Below, in pieces: positions 2,471 to 52,209 of a stretch of 64,000 nt of DNA. Position 1 is the stretch's first letter, and every line of letters starts with the position of its first letter. The translations under genes were made by a program, and so were the position numbers. Under the pieces are notes generated by a model that saw only the letters and a program-made list of their open reading frames with translations, had not been told where the DNA came from and made no database searches. Location: positions 4,972-68,971 of the forward strand of contig JAHFFR010000002.1 of NCBI GenBank assembly GCA_023247825.1. Reading direction: 5' to 3'. Source of the DNA: Candidatus Omnitrophota bacterium (GTDB taxonomy: Bacteria; Omnitrophota; Gorgyraeia; Gygaellales; Profunditerraquicolaceae).

Positions 2471-3850
2471 TTATTTTCCGATACAAAAATCAGTAAAAAT
2501 CCTGTCGAGAATATCCTCTGAAAAACTCTTGCCTAACAACTTATCCAAATAAGCACAGGCATCCTTTAAATCCTGGGTAATGAATTCCTGCGAAAGCTTG
2601 CCTGCCAAAGACTCTTTCGCCTGGCTGATTAATTTTTTAGCATTCCTTAGCGCCCGGATATGCCTTAAATTGCTCACGGCCAGAAATTCCGGAGCATGCA
2701 GTTTGCCCTTAAAAACAAATTCACAAAGCGCATCCTCAAGGTTATTGATATTTTTTGCTGATTTTGCGCAAAGCCGGACTACTTTACTAAATTCCTTAAG
2801 AATCTGATCTTTTTCAATGCGGCTCTTTAGGTCAATCTTATTGATTACCGCAATAGCATTTTTATTTTTTACTTCCTTGATTAATTTCCTGTCTTGGCCA
2901 TCTAATTTAGAGCTTGCGTCAAATAAAATAATTACCAGGTCCGCTAATTTGATATATTCCCTTGAACGCTTAACGGCTTTTCTCTCAATCAGGTCGCGCG
3001 GCGCGAGAATCCCGGCAGTATCGACAATCCTGACCGGTATGCCTTTTATATCAATTATCTCTTCAATGGTGTCGCGGGTTGTTCCGGCAACAGGAGTGAC
3101 AATGGAACGTTCTTTTTTAAGTAAAGCGTTTAAAAGCGAAGATTTCCCCACGTTTGGCTTACCGCAAATGACCACATGGATACCTTCGCGCAATACCCTG
3201 CCCGCTTGAGCGCTATCCAGTAATTTATCTAACTCTGCATCAATATAGGCAATGCCTTTTGATATTTCCGCCGCATCAAGCCCGATGCCTTCTTCGGGAA
3301 AATCGATATTTGCATCAAGGATCACTAAAATATCCAATAATTTCTGACGGATTTTGCTTATTTCTTTTGACAGCCCGCCGCTTAACTGGCCTAAGCTTAC
3401 CTTAAGCGCAGAATCGGTTTTTGCGCGGATAACATCAATCACCGCCTCTGCCTGGGTAAGGTCAATCCTGCCGTTTAAAAAAGCGCGCTTGGTAAACTCT
3501 CCGGGAGAAGCAAGGCGAGCTCCGCTGGCAAGCGTCAAACCCAAAACATTACGTAAAGCCACAATCCCGCCGTGGCAGTTTATCTCAACGATATCCTCCC
3601 GGGTATAAGATTTAGGCTTGCGCATAACCGTAAGAATAACCTCGTCGATAATTTTACCTTTATCGCTGATGTTGCCATAATGCATCGTATAGCTCTTAAA
3701 TTCCGCGCGCTTGGCTTTACCGGCGGGAAAAAATATTTTATTTGCTATGGCCAAGGCTTTCGGGCCGCTTATGCGCACAATGCCGATTCCGCCTTCACCG
3801 GGCGCAGTTGAAATCGCACAAATCGTATCGCCTAAATTATCTTCAAGCAT
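2471..3850 (-). CDS. mnmE: tRNA modification GTPase MnmE
   Basis: G1 motif GKPNVGKSSLLNAL, G-domain DTAGI and the diagnostic C-terminal FCIGK. Confidence 0.9.
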   Translation of the reverse strand: MLEDNLGDTICAISTAPGEGGIGIVRISGPKALAIANKIFFPAGKAKRAEFKSYTMHYGNISDKGKIIDEVILTVMRKPKSYTREDIVEINCHGGIVALRNVLGLTLASGARLASPGEFTKRAFLNGRIDLTQAEAVIDVIRAKTDSALKVSLGQLSGGLSKEISKIRQKLLDILVILDANIDFPEEGIGLDAAEISKGIAYIDAELDKLLDSAQAGRVLREGIHVVICGKPNVGKSSLLNALLKKERSIVTPVAGTTRDTIEEIIDIKGIPVRIVDTAGILAPRDLIERKAVKRSREYIKLADLVIILFDASSKLDGQDRKLIKEVKNKNAIAVINKIDLKSRIEKDQILKEFSKVVRLCAKSAKNINNLEDALCEFVFKGKLHAPEFLAVSNLRHIRALRNAKKLISQAKESLAGKLSQEFITQDLKDACAYLDKLLGKSFSEDILDRIFTDFCIGK

Positions 3851-5156
3851 TTCTGAATTCTCCGACTACAAATAACGAACCCGTAACTAAAATCAAGTCT
3901 TCTTTATGCGCCAAACTTAGGGATAAAAGCTTAGCTTCTTTTACGCTTTGCGTCAAATATAGATTTCTCTTAAAATAAACGGAAAGCTTCTTTGGATCGG
4001 TTGCGCGCAAAGTCGCCGCGCGGGTAAGGATAACTTCATCCGCCAGCGGAGCAAGCGTCCCGCATATTCCGGAGATATCCTTATCAAGCGAGATCCCTAA
4101 AACTAAAATAAGCCTTTTATATTTTCCGCCGGAGGCGGATCCGCCTTTGGCGGAAAAATTATCTTCTATCGCTGATTTTAAAACACGCGCTGACGCCGAA
4201 TTCTGCGCGCCATCTAAAACAATCAAAGGCGATTTTTTAATTACCTCGCACCTGCCCGGCCAGCGGGTATTTTTTATTCCCCGGCTAATTGCCCCGGCGC
4301 TTATTTTAACTCCATAACTGCGCAATGCCTCTATCGCTCCAATTGCGCAGGCAGCATTGATCAATTGATGCCTGCCGATTAAATTCATTTTTAACTTAAG
4401 TGTTTTGATGTCATTGCCTGTTATCCGTAACTTTGCCCCTACCTCTTTACACTTGTTCTTAATTACTCTTTGCGCCTCTTTTCCCTGCGGCGCAGAAATT
4501 ACTATTGCCCCTTTATTTTTTATAATCCCCGCCTTCTCCGCGGCTATCTTTGCCAAGGTCGGACCCAGCTTTTGCACATGTTCATAGCTAATCGGCGTAA
4601 TCACCTGCACCAAAGAACCGGCGGTATTAGTAGCATCAAGCCTGCCGCCCATACCGGTTTCTAAAACCACAAAATCAACTCGCTTGCGCTTAAAATAAAG
4701 AAAGGCCAAAGCGGTGTAAACCTCAAAAAAAGTAAGCGGCCCATACTTAGAACAGCGGTTATATTTATTAATTAGCGGTTTTAATTCTTTAACCAAAGAA
4801 GATAGGGCTTTTTGAGAAATCATTCCTTCAAAATCTCCTCCGGAGCGCCTCAAGCGCTTGTAGACAGGAGGCTCGAGTATCCTGATTCTTTCCCTGAAAT
4901 CATTCAGGTGGGGAGAGGTATACAGCCCGGCGCGAAAACCCGCTTCTTTGAGGATATAGGCAATAAATGCGCAGGTTGAGCCCTTACCTTTTGAGCCGGC
5001 GATATGAATAACGCGCAGAGATTCTTGGGGGTTTCCTATAACGCAAAGGAAGTTCTGGATACGCTCCAGCTTAAGTATTTCTTTATAGGAATAGTTTGTG
5101 TTTTTTTCGCAGTTAACGAAGGAATTTAAATATCTTAGAACCTGCAGGTAGGACAT
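3843..5156 (-). CDS. folC: Folylpolyglutamate synthase / dihydrofolate synthase (Mur-ligase family)
   Basis: P-loop HIAGSKGKGSTCAF, Mur-ligase central and C-terminal pattern, 437 aa. Confidence 0.8.
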   Translation of the reverse strand: MSYLQVLRYLNSFVNCEKNTNYSYKEILKLERIQNFLCVIGNPQESLRVIHIAGSKGKGSTCAFIAYILKEAGFRAGLYTSPHLNDFRERIRILEPPVYKRLRRSGGDFEGMISQKALSSLVKELKPLINKYNRCSKYGPLTFFEVYTALAFLYFKRKRVDFVVLETGMGGRLDATNTAGSLVQVITPISYEHVQKLGPTLAKIAAEKAGIIKNKGAIVISAPQGKEAQRVIKNKCKEVGAKLRITGNDIKTLKLKMNLIGRHQLINAACAIGAIEALRSYGVKISAGAISRGIKNTRWPGRCEVIKKSPLIVLDGAQNSASARVLKSAIEDNFSAKGGSASGGKYKRLILVLGISLDKDISGICGTLAPLADEVILTRAATLRATDPKKLSVYFKRNLYLTQSVKEAKLLSLSLAHKEDLILVTGSLFVVGEFRNA

Positions 5157-13666: not shown

Positions 13667-14294
13667 CCAGCGGACATGCCTCGCATTTGGGGTCCTGCTT
13701 ACGGCAGTAATCCTTGCCCAACTTGACCAAAAGGGCGTGATACTCGTTAAATAACTTCGCATCAACTTTAAGATTGCGCATAAAAATATCCTGCACGCTG
13801 GAATAATCGGCGCCTTCTTTAATTAATCCGTGCCGAAAAAGTATCCTTTTGGTGTAGGCATCGACGACAAATATGGGTTTATCCAGGGCGTAAAGTAAAA
13901 TAGAATCCGCGGTTTCCTGCCCGATACCGTTTACCTCAAGCAATTGTTTGCGCAAAACCGCTAAATCAACGGCGGCAATAGTTTTAATACTGGCGGCATA
14001 ATTATCAAAGAAAAATTTAAGAAAATTTTTAAGCCGGGCGGCTTTAATATTATAATACCCTGCGCTTTTAATTAAAAAAGCCAGTTTCCTCGGGGCCAGT
14101 TTATAGAGCTTGCCTGCGCCTAAGAGCTTTTTTTCTTTAAGGGCCGCCAGTGCCTTTTCTACGTTTGCCCAACTGGTATTCTGGGTAAGAATTGCCCCAA
14201 CCATTACTTCAAAAGCAGACTCAGCAGGCCACCAATGCTGTTGGCCAAAAGCAGAATAAAGGCGCTGAAAAATACGGTTTAACTTGCGCTTCAT
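13656..14294 (-). CDS. Endonuclease III-like HhH-GPD domain protein
   Basis: HhH motif LLEVNGIGQETADSILLYAL, catalytic-region VDAYTKR, and a C-terminal Cys cluster CRKQDPKCEACPL. Confidence 0.8.
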   Translation of the reverse strand: MKRKLNRIFQRLYSAFGQQHWWPAESAFEVMVGAILTQNTSWANVEKALAALKEKKLLGAGKLYKLAPRKLAFLIKSAGYYNIKAARLKNFLKFFFDNYAASIKTIAAVDLAVLRKQLLEVNGIGQETADSILLYALDKPIFVVDAYTKRILFRHGLIKEGADYSSVQDIFMRNLKVDAKLFNEYHALLVKLGKDYCRKQDPKCEACPLDGQ

Positions 14295-16228
14295 TCTTTA
14301 AGTTCTAACGGATTAAAACCATAATAGGCAAAAAGAGTATACGCTGTTCCGGAGACCGAGCCTGTATGGCTTCCCTTGGGGGTCATCCAGCCATGCCCCG
14401 TATCCACGTGCTCCTGGGTGGCATAAGGAAGGCAGCCTTCCCCCTGGCCCGACGGCGATGAACTGGAGATAATCATATTGCCCAATTCGCTTAAATACAT
14501 TTCCGCTTTTTTCTTATAATTATCCGCTTTGGGCGTATCGCCTTTTTTGGCATAAAAATCTTCCATAATTTTATAAGATACGATCATCTGCGCAGTCCAC
14601 TCCGAAGAGACTACCCCTCCTCTTGCTGCGTGCTGCTGCGGCGCAAAATCAAATCCTTTTATTTTTACTCCCCGGTTATTTGGCCGCAGGAAATTTACCT
14701 CGGCGCTGCAATTCTCCTCGACAAACTCCAGGATCTTATCCGGGTCCATGCCCAACTCTTGCAGCTTCTGCGGCCCGATAGCGGCAATTGACCATGCATA
14801 AGTATCTGTGGCAATAGTGGAATCGCCTTTGCCGCGCTTAACCGGTAAATCCTGCCGGTTATAGGTATTCTCGACGATCCAATTGACTGCTTTTTGGGCA
14901 GCCTGAAAATATATTTTTTCCCCCGTAACCCTGGCTAACATATTGAAAAACGCGTAAGCATCAAGATTGTGCTCCGTAGAATACCATTCAACCTGCGGCC
15001 CGCCGACTATACCGCCATCGGCGTCTTTATTTTGAATTTTGATAATCGTAGAAGCAATACTTTGTGCTAAATCCAGATAGCTTCTATCCTGGGTTTTTTG
15101 CATATACTGCATAACGGCAAGACCTACCCAGATATTCGGGCCGCTATGCATTATAAACTCCGCCGGGCCGCCGTCAGAGACATAATAGGCATTAAGAAAC
15201 CAGCCGTCTTCTCTTTTTGCCTGATGGGCAAAAAAATCCAGGATTTTCTTTGCGCGGCCAAAATCTTCAAACTGCGTATAAGCCTGGATGAGTAAAGCCA
15301 AATCATAAGTAAACGCCCAGCTGGCAATATCTTTATCCCCTTCGAAACTCGCTACCAAACCGGTGCGCTTATTTTGGTGGATCTTAAGCCACTGGTACAT
15401 CTTGTCAAAATTAGCCTTCTCTAGAGCTATCTTTTTCTCATCCAGCCGGGATAATTCTCTGCTGGCAATGTTTTCATTACGTAAAACTGCTGCCAGCTCT
15501 TCTTCTAAAACAGCTTTCTCTTTTGTTAAACCGGCAATCAAATCATTGAGCTGTTTAATCTGGCTTAAATCGCCTGTTTCTATTTTTTCTTTTTGGGATT
15601 CAAAAGATTTTATACGTTCCTCTAAGATTTTCAATTTTGACTGAAAATCCTGGCGCTCAACAATAAGCTCTTCCGTTTTTTGCTTAGTTAAATTTGAATC
15701 TCTTAATACAATGGCTAGCTTTTCGATAAGAAGCTTATTGCCGCGCGTTAACTTAAGGTTCGCGTAACTGTTAATGCCTAAAATTAAAGCCAAAAATACA
15801 ACCAGCGATAAAGCTACCGGGACAAAAAGCCTTTTAAACCAGGCATAGCGCATTAATTTGACATTTTTTCCTGCGGAAATCTGATCGTAATTTAAACCGA
15901 TTAAATACCTGCGGTTATCCCCCAGGACGTCCCTGACCCAGACAACGCTTGCCCGCGCAGGAATAGGCTTTCTGCTGATCGGGATATCAATTTCCAAGGA
16001 TAGCTTAAACTTTTTTTCATTGAGCAGTTTAAGTAATTGGGGGTCGGGATTATTTATAGAAAGGCAGATGCCGCCGCGGCTGACGTTATTAGTAAAACCC
16101 TGCAGCCAACTGGACAGAAAAATCTTCCCGTCCAGAGTTTCAAGGCGGAACTGCACCGGAAACACCGTATCCAGGCGCAGGTATTTTCTTTGCTCTATCG
16201 GATGTTCTTTTTTATTTTTTAACCCCAT
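14291..16228 (-). CDS. PilZ-domain protein with TM segment, coiled coil and C-terminal alpha/alpha-toroid-like domain
   Basis: N-terminal QRKYLRL...FPVQF...GFTNNVSRGGI (PilZ RxxxR / DxSxxG-type pattern). Hydrophobic VPVALSLVVFLALILGI, then heptad-rich KLKILEERIKSFESQKEKIE. The C-terminal helical repeats are Trp/Tyr-rich (AFTYDLALLIQAY..., NIWVGLAVMQY..., NLDAYAFFNML...). Confidence 0.65.
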   Translation of the reverse strand: MGLKNKKEHPIEQRKYLRLDTVFPVQFRLETLDGKIFLSSWLQGFTNNVSRGGICLSINNPDPQLLKLLNEKKFKLSLEIDIPISRKPIPARASVVWVRDVLGDNRRYLIGLNYDQISAGKNVKLMRYAWFKRLFVPVALSLVVFLALILGINSYANLKLTRGNKLLIEKLAIVLRDSNLTKQKTEELIVERQDFQSKLKILEERIKSFESQKEKIETGDLSQIKQLNDLIAGLTKEKAVLEEELAAVLRNENIASRELSRLDEKKIALEKANFDKMYQWLKIHQNKRTGLVASFEGDKDIASWAFTYDLALLIQAYTQFEDFGRAKKILDFFAHQAKREDGWFLNAYYVSDGGPAEFIMHSGPNIWVGLAVMQYMQKTQDRSYLDLAQSIASTIIKIQNKDADGGIVGGPQVEWYSTEHNLDAYAFFNMLARVTGEKIYFQAAQKAVNWIVENTYNRQDLPVKRGKGDSTIATDTYAWSIAAIGPQKLQELGMDPDKILEFVEENCSAEVNFLRPNNRGVKIKGFDFAPQQHAARGGVVSSEWTAQMIVSYKIMEDFYAKKGDTPKADNYKKKAEMYLSELGNMIISSSSPSGQGEGCLPYATQEHVDTGHGWMTPKGSHTGSVSGTAYTLFAYYGFNPLELKE

Positions 16229-16299
16229 TTTATCCTATTCTAAATTAAATCTTTCGACTATATTTTATAACAAATGAAAACTAATGCAATGTGAATTGT

Positions 16300-16670
16300 G
16301 GAGGGGTGCGGCTGCCTTGTCTTGTTTCTCGCAGGGACGCTTGTTTGCCCCTGCGTGGCAAAACTGCGCTCGGGTCGGCTGGCGTCGCTCCCCGCAAAAC
16401 AAGGATAGAGGGCGGGTCCATGCCCGCTCCTTGCCGACACGCCCTGCTCAAATCCAAAACAAGCCATCCGCTAAGAATATCTATAAGCTTTACGGCTTTT
16501 GCTGGAGGCGCATTAGGAAACTTTCGGCAATTCCCGAGTTTTCTTCTTTAGAGGAGTGCAAGGGATTACGACGGACCGAAGGCTTCAATCACCTTGTAAA
16601 TACGCCGAAGGCGAGCCGTAAACCGCAGCACTCGGCGAAAGTTTCCAGCGCCGGAAGCAAGAGACGGAAA
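16300..16670. ncRNA. Candidate structured non-coding RNA of unknown class (strand unresolved)
   Basis: Intergenic and visibly richer in G+C than the flanks. Nested helices: 16330-16336/16349-16355 (7 bp), 16410-16416/16423-16429 (7 bp), 16374-16379/16433-16438 (6 bp). A long arm follows: 16495-16503/16656-16663, 16507-16511/16648-16652, 16516-16525/16637-16646 (10 bp perfect) and 16534-16538/16631-16635. The overlapping ORF translations look like noise. Confidence 0.45.
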
Positions 16671-16686
16671 GCAAATACATGTAATT

Positions 16687-17277
16687 TCAAGGTTTGTGTC
16701 TAAAAGCAAAGAGGCCAGAGAAATTGGCAAGATCGGTAATGCCTTTTTCCTGGCAGATAATTTTAAACTTGGTAAAAACTTCCCAGGTCATTTCGACGTC
16801 GGCCAAAGCCCGGTGCTGCTGCGCTGATTTGACTTCCAGCTTCTGCGCGACAAACCAAAGCGCATAACGCGCCAAATCCGGCATAAGAATTCTCGCCATA
16901 GCCAGCACATCAAAAACAATAATATTATTAATTACGGGTAAACCAATTAACTTAAGCTCGTTATTTAAAAAGTTCAGGTCAAATTCCGCATTATATGAAC
17001 AAAGGCAGCTGCCTTTAATAAAATCTAAAAATTTTGGCATTACTGCCTCTACGCGCGGGGCCCCTTTTAACATCTCCGGAGTAATCTTATTTACGGCAAA
17101 AGCTCCCGGAGAAATCTCTCTCCCCGGATTAATCAGTTCATCAAATACGGCTAGCCTTTGTTTACCCTTAACCTTCAAGGCAGCCAACTCCACTATGCGG
17201 TCACCTTCCTCGGGCTTTAAACCGGTGGTCTCGGTATCGAATATAGTAATTTCTATTTCATCGATATGCTCAGGCAT
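16687..17277 (-). CDS. DnaQ-like 3'-5' exonuclease (DNA polymerase III epsilon family)
   Basis: ExoI FDTETTGL, ExoII SYNAEFDLNFL, ExoIII HRALADVEMT. Confidence 0.85.
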   Translation of the reverse strand: MPEHIDEIEITIFDTETTGLKPEEGDRIVELAALKVKGKQRLAVFDELINPGREISPGAFAVNKITPEMLKGAPRVEAVMPKFLDFIKGSCLCSYNAEFDLNFLNNELKLIGLPVINNIIVFDVLAMARILMPDLARYALWFVAQKLEVKSAQQHRALADVEMTWEVFTKFKIICQEKGITDLANFSGLFAFRHKP

Positions 17278-20542: not shown

Positions 20543-20621
20543 TGGCGGGGCCGACGAGATTCGGACTCGCGATCTCCTCCGTGACAGGGAGGCGCTTTAA
20601 ACCAGGCTAAGCTACGACCCC
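20543..20621 (-). tRNA. tRNA-Asp (anticodon GTC), CCA encoded
   Basis: Reverse complement GGGGTCGTAGCTTAGCCTGGTTTAAAGCGCCTCCCTGTCACGGAGGAGATCGCGAGTCCGAATCTCGTCGGCCCCGCCA folds as a cloverleaf. The anticodon loop is CTGTCAC. Confidence 0.9.
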
Positions 20622-20685
20622 AAATTATGAAGTTAGATTTTAACCTAAAACCTTAATGTTTGCAACAGGTTTTTATCTTTAAAAA

Positions 20686-20762
20686 TGGTGGGCGATAGAG
20701 GACTTGAACCCCTGACCCTCTGCGTGTAAAGCAGATGCTCTAACCAGCTGAGCTAATCGCCC
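20686..20762 (-). tRNA. tRNA-Val (anticodon TAC), CCA encoded
   Basis: Reverse complement GGGCGATTAGCTCAGCTGGTTAGAGCATCTGCTTTACACGCAGAGGGTCAGGGGTTCAAGTCCTCTATCGCCCACCA. The anticodon loop is TTTACAC. Confidence 0.9.
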
Positions 20763-33273: not shown

Positions 33274-33345
33274 TGCGCCTGGCAGGAATTGAACCTGCAC
33301 CACCAGCTTCGGAGGCTAGTGCTCTATCCGTTGAGCCACAGGCGC
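33274..33345 (-). tRNA. tRNA-Arg (anticodon CCG), CCA not encoded
   Basis: Reverse complement GCGCCTGTGGCTCAACGGATAGAGCACTAGCCTCCGAAGCTGGTGGTGCAGGTTCAATTCCTGCCAGGCGCA. The anticodon loop is CTCCGAA. Confidence 0.85.
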
Positions 33346-52134: not shown

Positions 52135-52209
52135 TGACCCTGACGGGATTTGAACCCGTGTCGAGAGCTTGAAAAGCTCTTGTCCTGGACCAGGCTAGAC
52201 GACAGGGTC
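52135..52209 (-). tRNA. tRNA-Glu (anticodon TTC), CCA not encoded
   Basis: Reverse complement GACCCTGTCGTCTAGCCTGGTCCAGGACAAGAGCTTTTCAAGCTCTCGACACGGGTTCAAATCCCGTCAGGGTCA. The anticodon loop is TTTTCAA. Confidence 0.9.

Follow-up and report, generated by a model that had tools for sequence, protein, structure and literature searches.

The spacer between an exonuclease gene and a PilZ gene of a Candidatus Omnitrophota bacterium (assembly GCA_023247825.1, contig JAHFFR010000002.1, positions 4,972 to 68,971; this whole stretch of 64,000 nucleotides (nt) is referred to as the window) is 458 nt long and contains a G+C-rich block densely packed with complementary segments, which raises the question of what this block is and whether it belongs to either of the neighbouring genes. 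An earlier reading, made from the letters of the window alone (the sequence-only reading), proposed a single structured RNA of approximately 400 nt. The block is instead composed of two adjacent structured modules, a multi-helix domain (Part A) followed by a long irregular hairpin (the rod), with no single continuous fold. The two modules belong to large families that have so far been found solely in Omnitrophota and of which neither Rfam 15 nor the searched literature holds a record. The interpretation preferred here, held at about even confidence, is that the block is a composite copy of an Omnitrophota family of dispersed, non-coding, structure-constrained intergenic elements, which are carried in neighbouring transcripts.

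The G+C-rich block is present at 16290–16680, as described in the sequence-only reading, and the helices listed for it, including the perfect 10-base-pair (bp) match GGAAACTTTC/GAAAGTTTCC (16516–16525 / 16637–16646) and an arm of approximately 170 nt, are recovered by a repeat finder. The G+C content is 0.585 in 16300–16499, compared with 0.37–0.46 in the immediate flanks; because nearby coding windows reach up to 0.53, composition on its own is a weak signal for the block. As a whole, the 406-nt block folds better than its dinucleotide shuffles (z = −3.8 on the plus strand and z = −2.9 on the minus strand), and the arm alone (16478–16685, plus strand) reaches −73.6 kcal/mol compared with −53.7 kcal/mol for shuffles (z = −4.75). 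Part A occupies 16308–16474 (approximately 167 nt) and is followed by an A/T-rich linker (16475–16486), which measures 1–60 nt in other copies according to the profile maps on 123 loci and the flank listing. The rod, an irregular hairpin of 186 nt, occupies 16487–16672 on the plus strand. Profiles built without the window find the window rod at E = 1.4e-32 (match at 16483–16676) and the window Part A at E = 3.6e-36 (match at 16312–16474), and the same profiles find no further copy of either module in the window. The separate occurrence of the two modules elsewhere speaks against a single RNA of approximately 400 nt.

The rod is a self-contained hairpin of approximately 190 nt with a strongly conserved asymmetric core. 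The outermost helix, P1 (16487–16505 / 16654–16672), is variable in sequence, and is followed inward by a GGAG/GGAA internal loop, P2 (GGCGC/GCGCC), an AUUAG bulge and P3, an A/U-rich helix of 11 bp (16516–16526 / 16636–16646). Inward from P3, the 5' strand carries an optional insert (16530–16553), which ranges over 0–22 nt across the copies and is the sole sizeable loop; P4 (GAGUGC/GCACUC), the conserved core and a variable apex complete the structure. The core (16557–16625, plus strand), which encloses the apex, is the most conserved part of the rod, as judged by the invariant columns of a 40-sequence alignment. Within it, UGCAAGGGAUUACGACG (16557–16573) pairs with CGUAAACCG(CAGCAC) (16617–16631) to form a UUACG/CGUAA helix, next to which most homologues have a tandem G.A (CGAG/CGAG) loop. 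The conserved unpaired features comprise the GGAG/GGAA loop, the AUUAG bulge, the tandem G.A loop and a G-N-N-A apex, mostly GCGUAAG on the plus strand. The C(UUCG)G tetraloops described earlier on the minus strand are located in the variable apex and are not conserved among homologues, the conserved apex being the GCGUAAG-like one of the plus strand.

The helices of the rod are maintained by compensatory substitutions. In the alignment of 40 rods (A3), RNAalifold gives four helices beyond the variable closing stem, and these were compared with 500 shuffles. Standard pairs fill 98.6% of the cells, compared with a shuffled mean of 88.2% (reached by 0/500 shuffles), and 157 cells are changed on both sides, compared with 57.6 in the shuffles (0/500). 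Pairs changed on both sides number 13 of 33 (shuffled mean 10.2, reached by 4/500), and one pair shows all four Watson–Crick types among the 40 sequences. The covariation score is 0.307, compared with 0.118 for the shuffles (0/500), and it falls to 0.03–0.07 when the partner columns are slid by 1–3 positions. Even two rods on one contig of 186 kb differ from each other by compensatory changes in P2 and P3.

Part A is closed by a GCGG...CCGC helix, after which UAA follows, and by a second helix, CUUGUCUUG/CAAAACAAG, stacked on the first. These enclose a third long-range helix (GCAGGG/CCCUGC) and two hairpins, one of which is conserved, loop included (UUUGCC-CCUGCGU-GGCAAA), whereas the other, at 16405–16430, is variable. 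A CGCUC-type motif, GAGCG on the other strand, recurs four times in the module, and a pseudoknot, for example of ACGCU with AGCGU around the UUUUGCC hairpin, is a possible candidate feature. Covariation was measured in the same manner on 23 sequences (alignment A4, 500 shuffles). Here, 93.1% of the cells hold standard pairs (shuffled mean 79.3%, 0/500), 97 cells are changed on both sides (shuffled mean 29.1, 0/500), and 17 of the 31 pairs are changed on both sides (shuffled mean 13.1, reached by 2/500). The covariation score of 0.381, compared with 0.139 in the shuffles (0/500) and 0.06–0.12 in slid controls, lies above all 500 shuffles, as it does for the rod, and compensatory changes therefore support the helices of both modules.

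Lower energy and purine-rich mismatches assign the rod to the plus strand, on which it runs antisense to the two genes beside it in the window: in 87 of 91 copies, the complement is less stable by approximately 10 kcal/mol, and the plus-strand mismatches are G.G, G.A and A.A. For Part A, the minus orientation is more stable, by approximately 7 kcal/mol in 28 of 30 copies, and it is this orientation that carries the purine-rich mismatches. Nevertheless, Part A lies directly 5' of a rod and on the strand of the rod in 21–27 cases (21 full copies), and never on the 3' side.

Both halves of the block have many homologues; together with the covariation above, this answers the lack of conservation or covariation in related genomes that the sequence-only reading had named as a refuting outcome. 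For comparison, 80 PilZ loci were taken from species-representative genomes, and the named PilZ homologues are all Candidatus Omnitrophota. Used alone against these loci, the window spacer retrieves by nhmmer little beyond the PilZ promoter and the locus L017; a weak match lies in L064. L017 (PilZ 74% identical) holds the first rod homologue, which is situated upstream of PilZ in the orientation opposite to that of the window; a repeat of 10 bp flanks this rod. The second homologue, that of L064, lies 2.5 kb from PilZ between other genes and retains the architecture with a completely different closing stem. The L017 and L064 rods fold with z = −12.7 and z = −11.1, respectively. Two motifs shared by these rods and the rod of the window prove to be the opposite sides of a single helix, in which the internal loops are conserved, and the pattern derived from the three, TGCAAGGNNTTACGNCGN{35,65}CGTAANCCG, matches at least 120 metagenome loci, compared with an estimate of approximately 2 expected by chance. 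A profile hidden Markov model confirms 118 of the 120 pattern-matched loci listed as rods. The other two, L232 and L302, have approximately 60% G+C and no match to the rod profile; they look like chance matches, in agreement with the estimate. The pattern has no match in viral contigs, and blastn of the spacer finds none in phage genomes. The 15-mer GCTTTTGCTGGAGGC has at least 120 matches in viral contigs; these are read as chance, and no such locus matches the spacer in nhmmer.

Mapped with the profiles, 123 loci carry 133 rods and 40 copies of Part A. The metagenome scan was seeded on the rod core, so that Part A and the other modules are under-sampled, and the copies were viewed in windows of 1–15 kb around the matches, which makes copy number per genome a rough inference. 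Contig Ga0265297_10000233 carries two rods and three copies of Part A, and two rods each are found in L240, L266, L270 and L285. The host contigs identified, among the few checked, are all Omnitrophota.

Some rods stand by themselves, and others follow one of at least three interchangeable 5' modules, namely Part A, mini Part A and module C. Fifty-nine rods that have at least 250 nt of flanking sequence on both sides show no Part A within 150 nt, and some copies of Part A have no adjoining rod. In mini Part A (approximately 70 nt), which precedes the rods of L208, L209, L243, L246, L269 and L299, a short hairpin is enclosed by the pair of closing helices known from Part A (UUAGCGGGUCCUG…/…CCACCCGCUAA); because both closing helices are kept, the termini seem to be the conserved part of the Part A module. 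Module C is a structured segment of approximately 150 nt with a long GCCGUCCCAAG…CUUGGGAU hairpin, which takes the place of Part A at L017 (1–150) and upstream of the rods in L210, L217, L242, L250, L255, L272, L274 and L292. Both module C and Part A end in a stretch containing GCUCGAAA; a candidate for a shared ending of the 5' modules is GCTCGAAA-N16-17-TAnnAT. In L248 and L297, a complete rod is followed directly on its 3' side by part of another, namely the 3' half belonging to a second subtype of rod (…CGCGGAACAAUAUCCCGAAGAGCAAAAUAUC), which suggests nested or truncated copies. Separately, a GAGCGAG-N-AAAAC-N-GACAG-N-UUCAU sequence is found within approximately 15 nt after many rods, among them those of L216, L218, L229, L250, L255, L261, L275, L277, L294, L300 and L319.

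All copies are situated between open reading frames (ORFs), and the genes that they adjoin are unrelated housekeeping genes: cysteinyl-tRNA synthetase (cysS), UvrC, MurJ, a two-domain heptosyltransferase, a deoxyhypusine-synthase-like protein and others. The cysteinyl-tRNA synthetase next to the element matches a protein of an Omnitrophica metagenome-assembled genome (MAG) at 100%; an MsbA-type ATP-binding cassette transporter and a UvrD-type helicase, identified by reading their sequences only, are also among the neighbours. Rods located between co-directional genes are antisense in 27 cases and sense in 16, which is close to random, and the same heptosyltransferase locus carries the element in both orientations in different metagenomes. 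The exonuclease–PilZ locus behaves similarly, with Part A and a rod antisense to PilZ in the window and module C and a rod in the sense orientation in L017. As the 5' module and the orientation both differ at this one locus, the pair suggests two independent acquisitions rather than an inversion. Approximately 40 species with the exonuclease–PilZ adjacency have neither module, and the closest relatives, for example L004, whose PilZ is 83% identical, do not carry the block. The element typically begins within approximately 20 nt after the stop codon of the upstream gene and leaves 60–125 nt before the next start codon; in the window, the 3' end of the rod is separated from the exonuclease stop codon by 15 nt. 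Such a placement, from the stop codon to the promoter region, is the pattern expected of a tolerated insertion in a compact genome.

The position beside PilZ had led the sequence-only reading to consider a very long structured leader of this gene, and a 5' leader or riboswitch on the minus strand of a gene for a cyclic di-GMP-binding protein would fit the adjacency in both the window and L017. However, the sole piece of the spacer that is conserved in the element-free PilZ loci L004, L006, L009, L010, L011, L012 and L025, and also in L017, is a promoter-like motif, TTGCAT-N16-TAAAAT (16262–16289, minus strand), which was read by eye from the alignments of PilZ orthologue loci and is not listed by a simple promoter scan. 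This motif probably is the PilZ promoter and marks the PilZ-side boundary of the element. Because the block lies upstream of it and is absent from the closest relatives, the block is not a PilZ leader. The approximately 40 syntenic PilZ orthologue loci without the element, the reversed orientation relative to PilZ in L017, the more than 100 other copies beside unrelated genes and the lack of a match to a cyclic di-GMP riboswitch make the leader extremely improbable. For the family as a whole, a cis-regulatory leader or riboswitch is rejected on the same grounds of unrelated neighbours, mixed orientation and a PilZ promoter-like motif downstream of the element.

No known RNA family accounts for the block, in agreement with the earlier suggestion of an RNA of unknown class. 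Searched with Rfam 15 (4227 families) at gathering thresholds, the whole window yields four tRNAs elsewhere only; at E ≤ 10, the segment 16150–16800 gives four noise matches of 11–15 bits; 16 homologous loci give no match at gathering thresholds, and 15 more searched at E ≤ 5 give no recurrent family. The gathering threshold is not reached by the curated families RF00010, RF00023, RF00169/RF01854, RF00013 and RF01051/RF01786, and ARAGORN finds four tRNAs in the window and no transfer-messenger RNA (tmRNA) at 16290–16680, so that the earlier negatives for RNase P, tmRNA and the signal recognition particle (SRP) RNA were right. A literature search by topic and by core sequence returned no description of the element and none of non-coding elements in Omnitrophota. 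Resemblances to group II intron domain V (GAGCCGUA-), SRP domain IV, conserved regions of RNase P and integron attC sites lacked support and were set aside.

The block does not encode a conserved protein either. The earlier reading had dismissed the ORFs across it as noise and had named a conserved coding frame as the result that would overturn an RNA interpretation; such a frame was looked for in the homologues and not found. Every copy of Part A has some open frame, with low-complexity translations rich in R/S/A/P/L, but the open frame and its strand differ among homologues, and the composite units are interrupted in most of them. An ORF of 139 amino acids (aa) over the element (16284–16703, plus strand), which has no Pfam match, is almost certainly an artefact of stop-poor, G+C-rich structured sequence. 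It is annotated by gene callers on the identical contigs L001 (2163–2582) and L002 (3575–3994), and the length of the element, approximately 370 nt, falls in the size range of RNase P RNA and tmRNA. Nevertheless, a divergent universal RNA (RNase P RNA, tmRNA, 6S RNA or SRP RNA) or a real 139-aa protein is highly unlikely in view of the results above and of the presence of more than one copy on several contigs. In the case of 6S RNA, the resemblance extends to a rod-like RNA of approximately 190 nt whose helices are kept by covariation; unlike 6S RNA, which usually has one or two copies per genome, the rod is nearly continuous and has no large two-sided central bubble, the element is sporadic and multi-copy, and RF00013 is not matched.

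Under the preferred interpretation, the elements would spread, or would be repeatedly acquired, as accessory DNA. They would lack a promoter of their own, and read-through transcription from the neighbouring genes would produce the RNA form in which they act. The stable rod with its purine-rich loops (the tandem G.A and the G-N-N-A apex) may then form a protein-binding, exonuclease-blocking or transcript-delimiting structure. In the window, this would place the element at the end of the exonuclease transcript, within its 3' untranslated region and shortly before the PilZ promoter.

Several observations weigh against this interpretation. Across 92 rods, the direct repeats on either side do not exceed those of mismatched controls in length, no target-site duplications are found, and no autonomous parent element or mobilising gene is found in 92–120 loci. 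The two rods that share a contig are diverged by compensatory changes, which is more typical of old families of functional RNA genes than of recent miniature inverted-repeat transposable elements (MITEs), and the core is conserved to a degree that would be unusual in a merely selfish repeat. The strand signals from energy and purine-rich loops point to plus for the rod and to minus for Part A, so that one co-transcribed unit is not easily reconciled with them. Furthermore, the aligned core helices contain few G.U and few A.C cells, in about equal numbers (approximately 10 each of 1320), and the pairing therefore looks equally constrained on both strands. No U-tract is seen after the rods in a reading of the flank listing, and they are thus not classical intrinsic terminators. 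Finally, the evidence that the elements probably act as RNA consists solely of covariation and loop composition.

Two other explanations share the preferred view of the nature of the element and assign it another mode of action. The first of them, which is doubtful, sees the copies as genes of trans-acting small RNAs, with several paralogues in each genome. The rod would then serve a ribonucleoprotein as its RNA component or scaffold, either by itself or together with a 5' domain; the internal loops would be protein-binding sites, and the CGCUC/GAGCG repeats of Part A could titrate a protein. The very strong conservation of the core and the extensive covariation, which includes two copies on one contig, suit such genes, as do the purine-rich internal loops and G-N-N-A apex that are seen in functional RNAs, the energetic preference of the rod for one strand, the constant position of Part A on the 5' side and the same strand, and the lack of transposition machinery and of target-site duplications. 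However, sigma-70-like sites upstream of the rods are enriched on neither strand, being no commoner than in shuffles or on the opposite strand, and no terminator-like U-tract is seen downstream. The absence of the element from approximately 40 related species at the orthologous locus, the opposite orientations at one locus, the interchangeable 5' modules and the nested or truncated copies also speak against small-RNA genes, and the rod is nearly without single-stranded sequence for pairing with a target.

Less probable still, and on balance unlikely, is mobile DNA of a non-autonomous kind, with hairpins that matter in single-stranded form. Examples would be an IS200/IS605-derived MITE or palindrome-associated transposable element (PATE), which may have kept a TnpB/IscB guide-RNA scaffold, or a REP-like sequence targeted by a RAYT transposase. 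Dispersal in many intergenic copies, both orientations, presence or absence between genomes and different composites at one locus all agree with mobile DNA, the lack of target-site duplications is as expected for IS200/IS605, and the equal rarity of G.U and A.C indicates constraint on both strands. Yet no Y1 transposase, TnpB or IscB-like gene lies beside approximately 92 rods, and no transposase, reverse transcriptase or TnpB-like neighbour recurs among 92–120 loci. No TnpB-like product is found among the ORFs that end within 115 nt upstream of rods, as judged from sequence with no profile search, and no transposase is seen among the genes that lie between inverted rods or between a Part A and a rod set apart from it, which are a mixture of small membrane and housekeeping genes. 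Neither IS605-orfB nor HEARO-type RNAs are matched in Rfam, and the two rods that share a contig have diverged instead of being near-identical. The asymmetric purine-rich loops and the G-N-N-A apex are motifs of an RNA type, and no conserved target sequence has been identified. A cut-and-paste MITE is not supported, as the direct repeats have the length distribution of mismatched controls and no transposase lies next to or between the copies; an IS200/IS605-derived element or a TnpB–IscB omega RNA is likewise unsupported by the neighbours of the copies examined and by Rfam.

Comparison with known systems places the elements nearest to the interspersed intergenic repeats. REP/BIME, ERIC/IRU and pneumococcal BOX elements are intergenic imperfect-palindrome repeats of 35–150 nt without target-site duplications, and the BOX A-B-C and BIME mosaics are modular. 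The Omnitrophota elements are likewise non-coding, dispersed, multi-copy and intergenic or untranslated; they form imperfect palindromes, occur in either orientation, are present or absent at orthologous sites, and combine into mosaic modules with hairpins that would be stable in a transcript. Unlike these repeats, the rod measures approximately 190 nt and the composite approximately 370 nt, Part A is a multi-helix structure and no simple palindrome, and no similarity to any Rfam or literature sequence is found. Across the host phylum, itself uncultivated, the core is conserved in many species-level lineages and compensatory change is extensive; no associated RAYT or transposase is seen. The resemblance, drawn by analogy, would thus be one of behaviour and not of membership. 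In the case of IS200/IS605 MITEs or PATEs and omega RNAs, the likeness lies in a structured, non-autonomous and dispersed element that makes no target-site duplication, and the two different structured ends (left and right) offer an analogy to the 5' module and the rod; unlike them, the copies examined have no tnpA, tnpB or iscB beside them, and the two rods that share a contig are old and diverged. The msr–msd RNA of retrons also combines a 5' structured domain, whose 5' part is modular, with a long hairpin. A retron non-coding RNA is nonetheless not supported, as the downstream neighbours are housekeeping genes with no reverse transcriptase cluster, no reverse transcriptase gene lies beside any copy, and no flanking a1/a2 repeat pattern is established.

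Tentatively, and with rather low confidence, the rod and Part A may also be regarded as RNA components of a new Omnitrophota-specific system. One possibility is a class of large non-coding RNAs with extensive structure, present in several paralogous copies, which might be two-domain, ribozyme-like RNAs or might scaffold a ribonucleoprotein; another possibility is an RNA-structured mobile element with no adjacent gene, resembling a short interspersed element (SINE) or a guide RNA and served in trans by a protein whose gene lies elsewhere.

The genes around the spacer are both encoded on the minus strand. The exonuclease, of the DnaQ/RNase T type (Pfam RNase_T, E = 6e-36), extends over 16687–17277 with its stop codon at 16687–16689, and the PilZ/GH76-like gene (Pfam PilZ and Glyco_hydro_76) extends over 14291–16228 with its start at 16228. 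The window spacer locus is found in identical form on three metagenome contigs. Among the 80 PilZ loci, the exonuclease lies directly upstream of PilZ, as in the window, in approximately 40, with a gap of approximately 20–320 nt; the gaps of approximately 320 nt correspond to a longer exonuclease ORF and are coding rather than spacer. In many relatives (L008, L011, L013 and similar loci, approximately 3680–3990), the exonuclease ORF is approximately 100 aa longer (…YLVGYCCLKKEQRIFRLDNIL…), and this C-terminal extension is missing from the 196-aa protein of the window. The exonuclease–PilZ spacers of L007 (3850–4003) and L012 (3838–4003) contain other, unrelated long perfect palindromes (GGGGACG…CGTCCCC). 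Sequences that form hairpins seem to have settled repeatedly in the spacer between these two genes. The sole Rfam and ARAGORN matches in the window are four tRNA genes (Asp-GTC, Val-TAC, Arg-CCG and Glu-TTC), located on the minus strand at 20543–20762, 33274–33345 and 52135–52209.

Thus, a single window yields two large families of covarying structures that are both missing from Rfam 15, one of which, the rod, has more than 118 members, in a phylum that is widespread and almost entirely uncultivated. A rod of approximately 190 nt with a near-invariant asymmetric core, combined with a multi-helix domain of approximately 170 nt, is far more elaborate than the usual intergenic repeat, and this elaboration implies that the element has a partner specific to it, be it a protein or machinery for mobilisation. 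The families explain spurious calls of hypothetical proteins in Omnitrophota MAGs, such as the 139-aa ORF over the element. The alignments are seeds for new covariance models, and the elements are markers for insertion polymorphism at the strain level.

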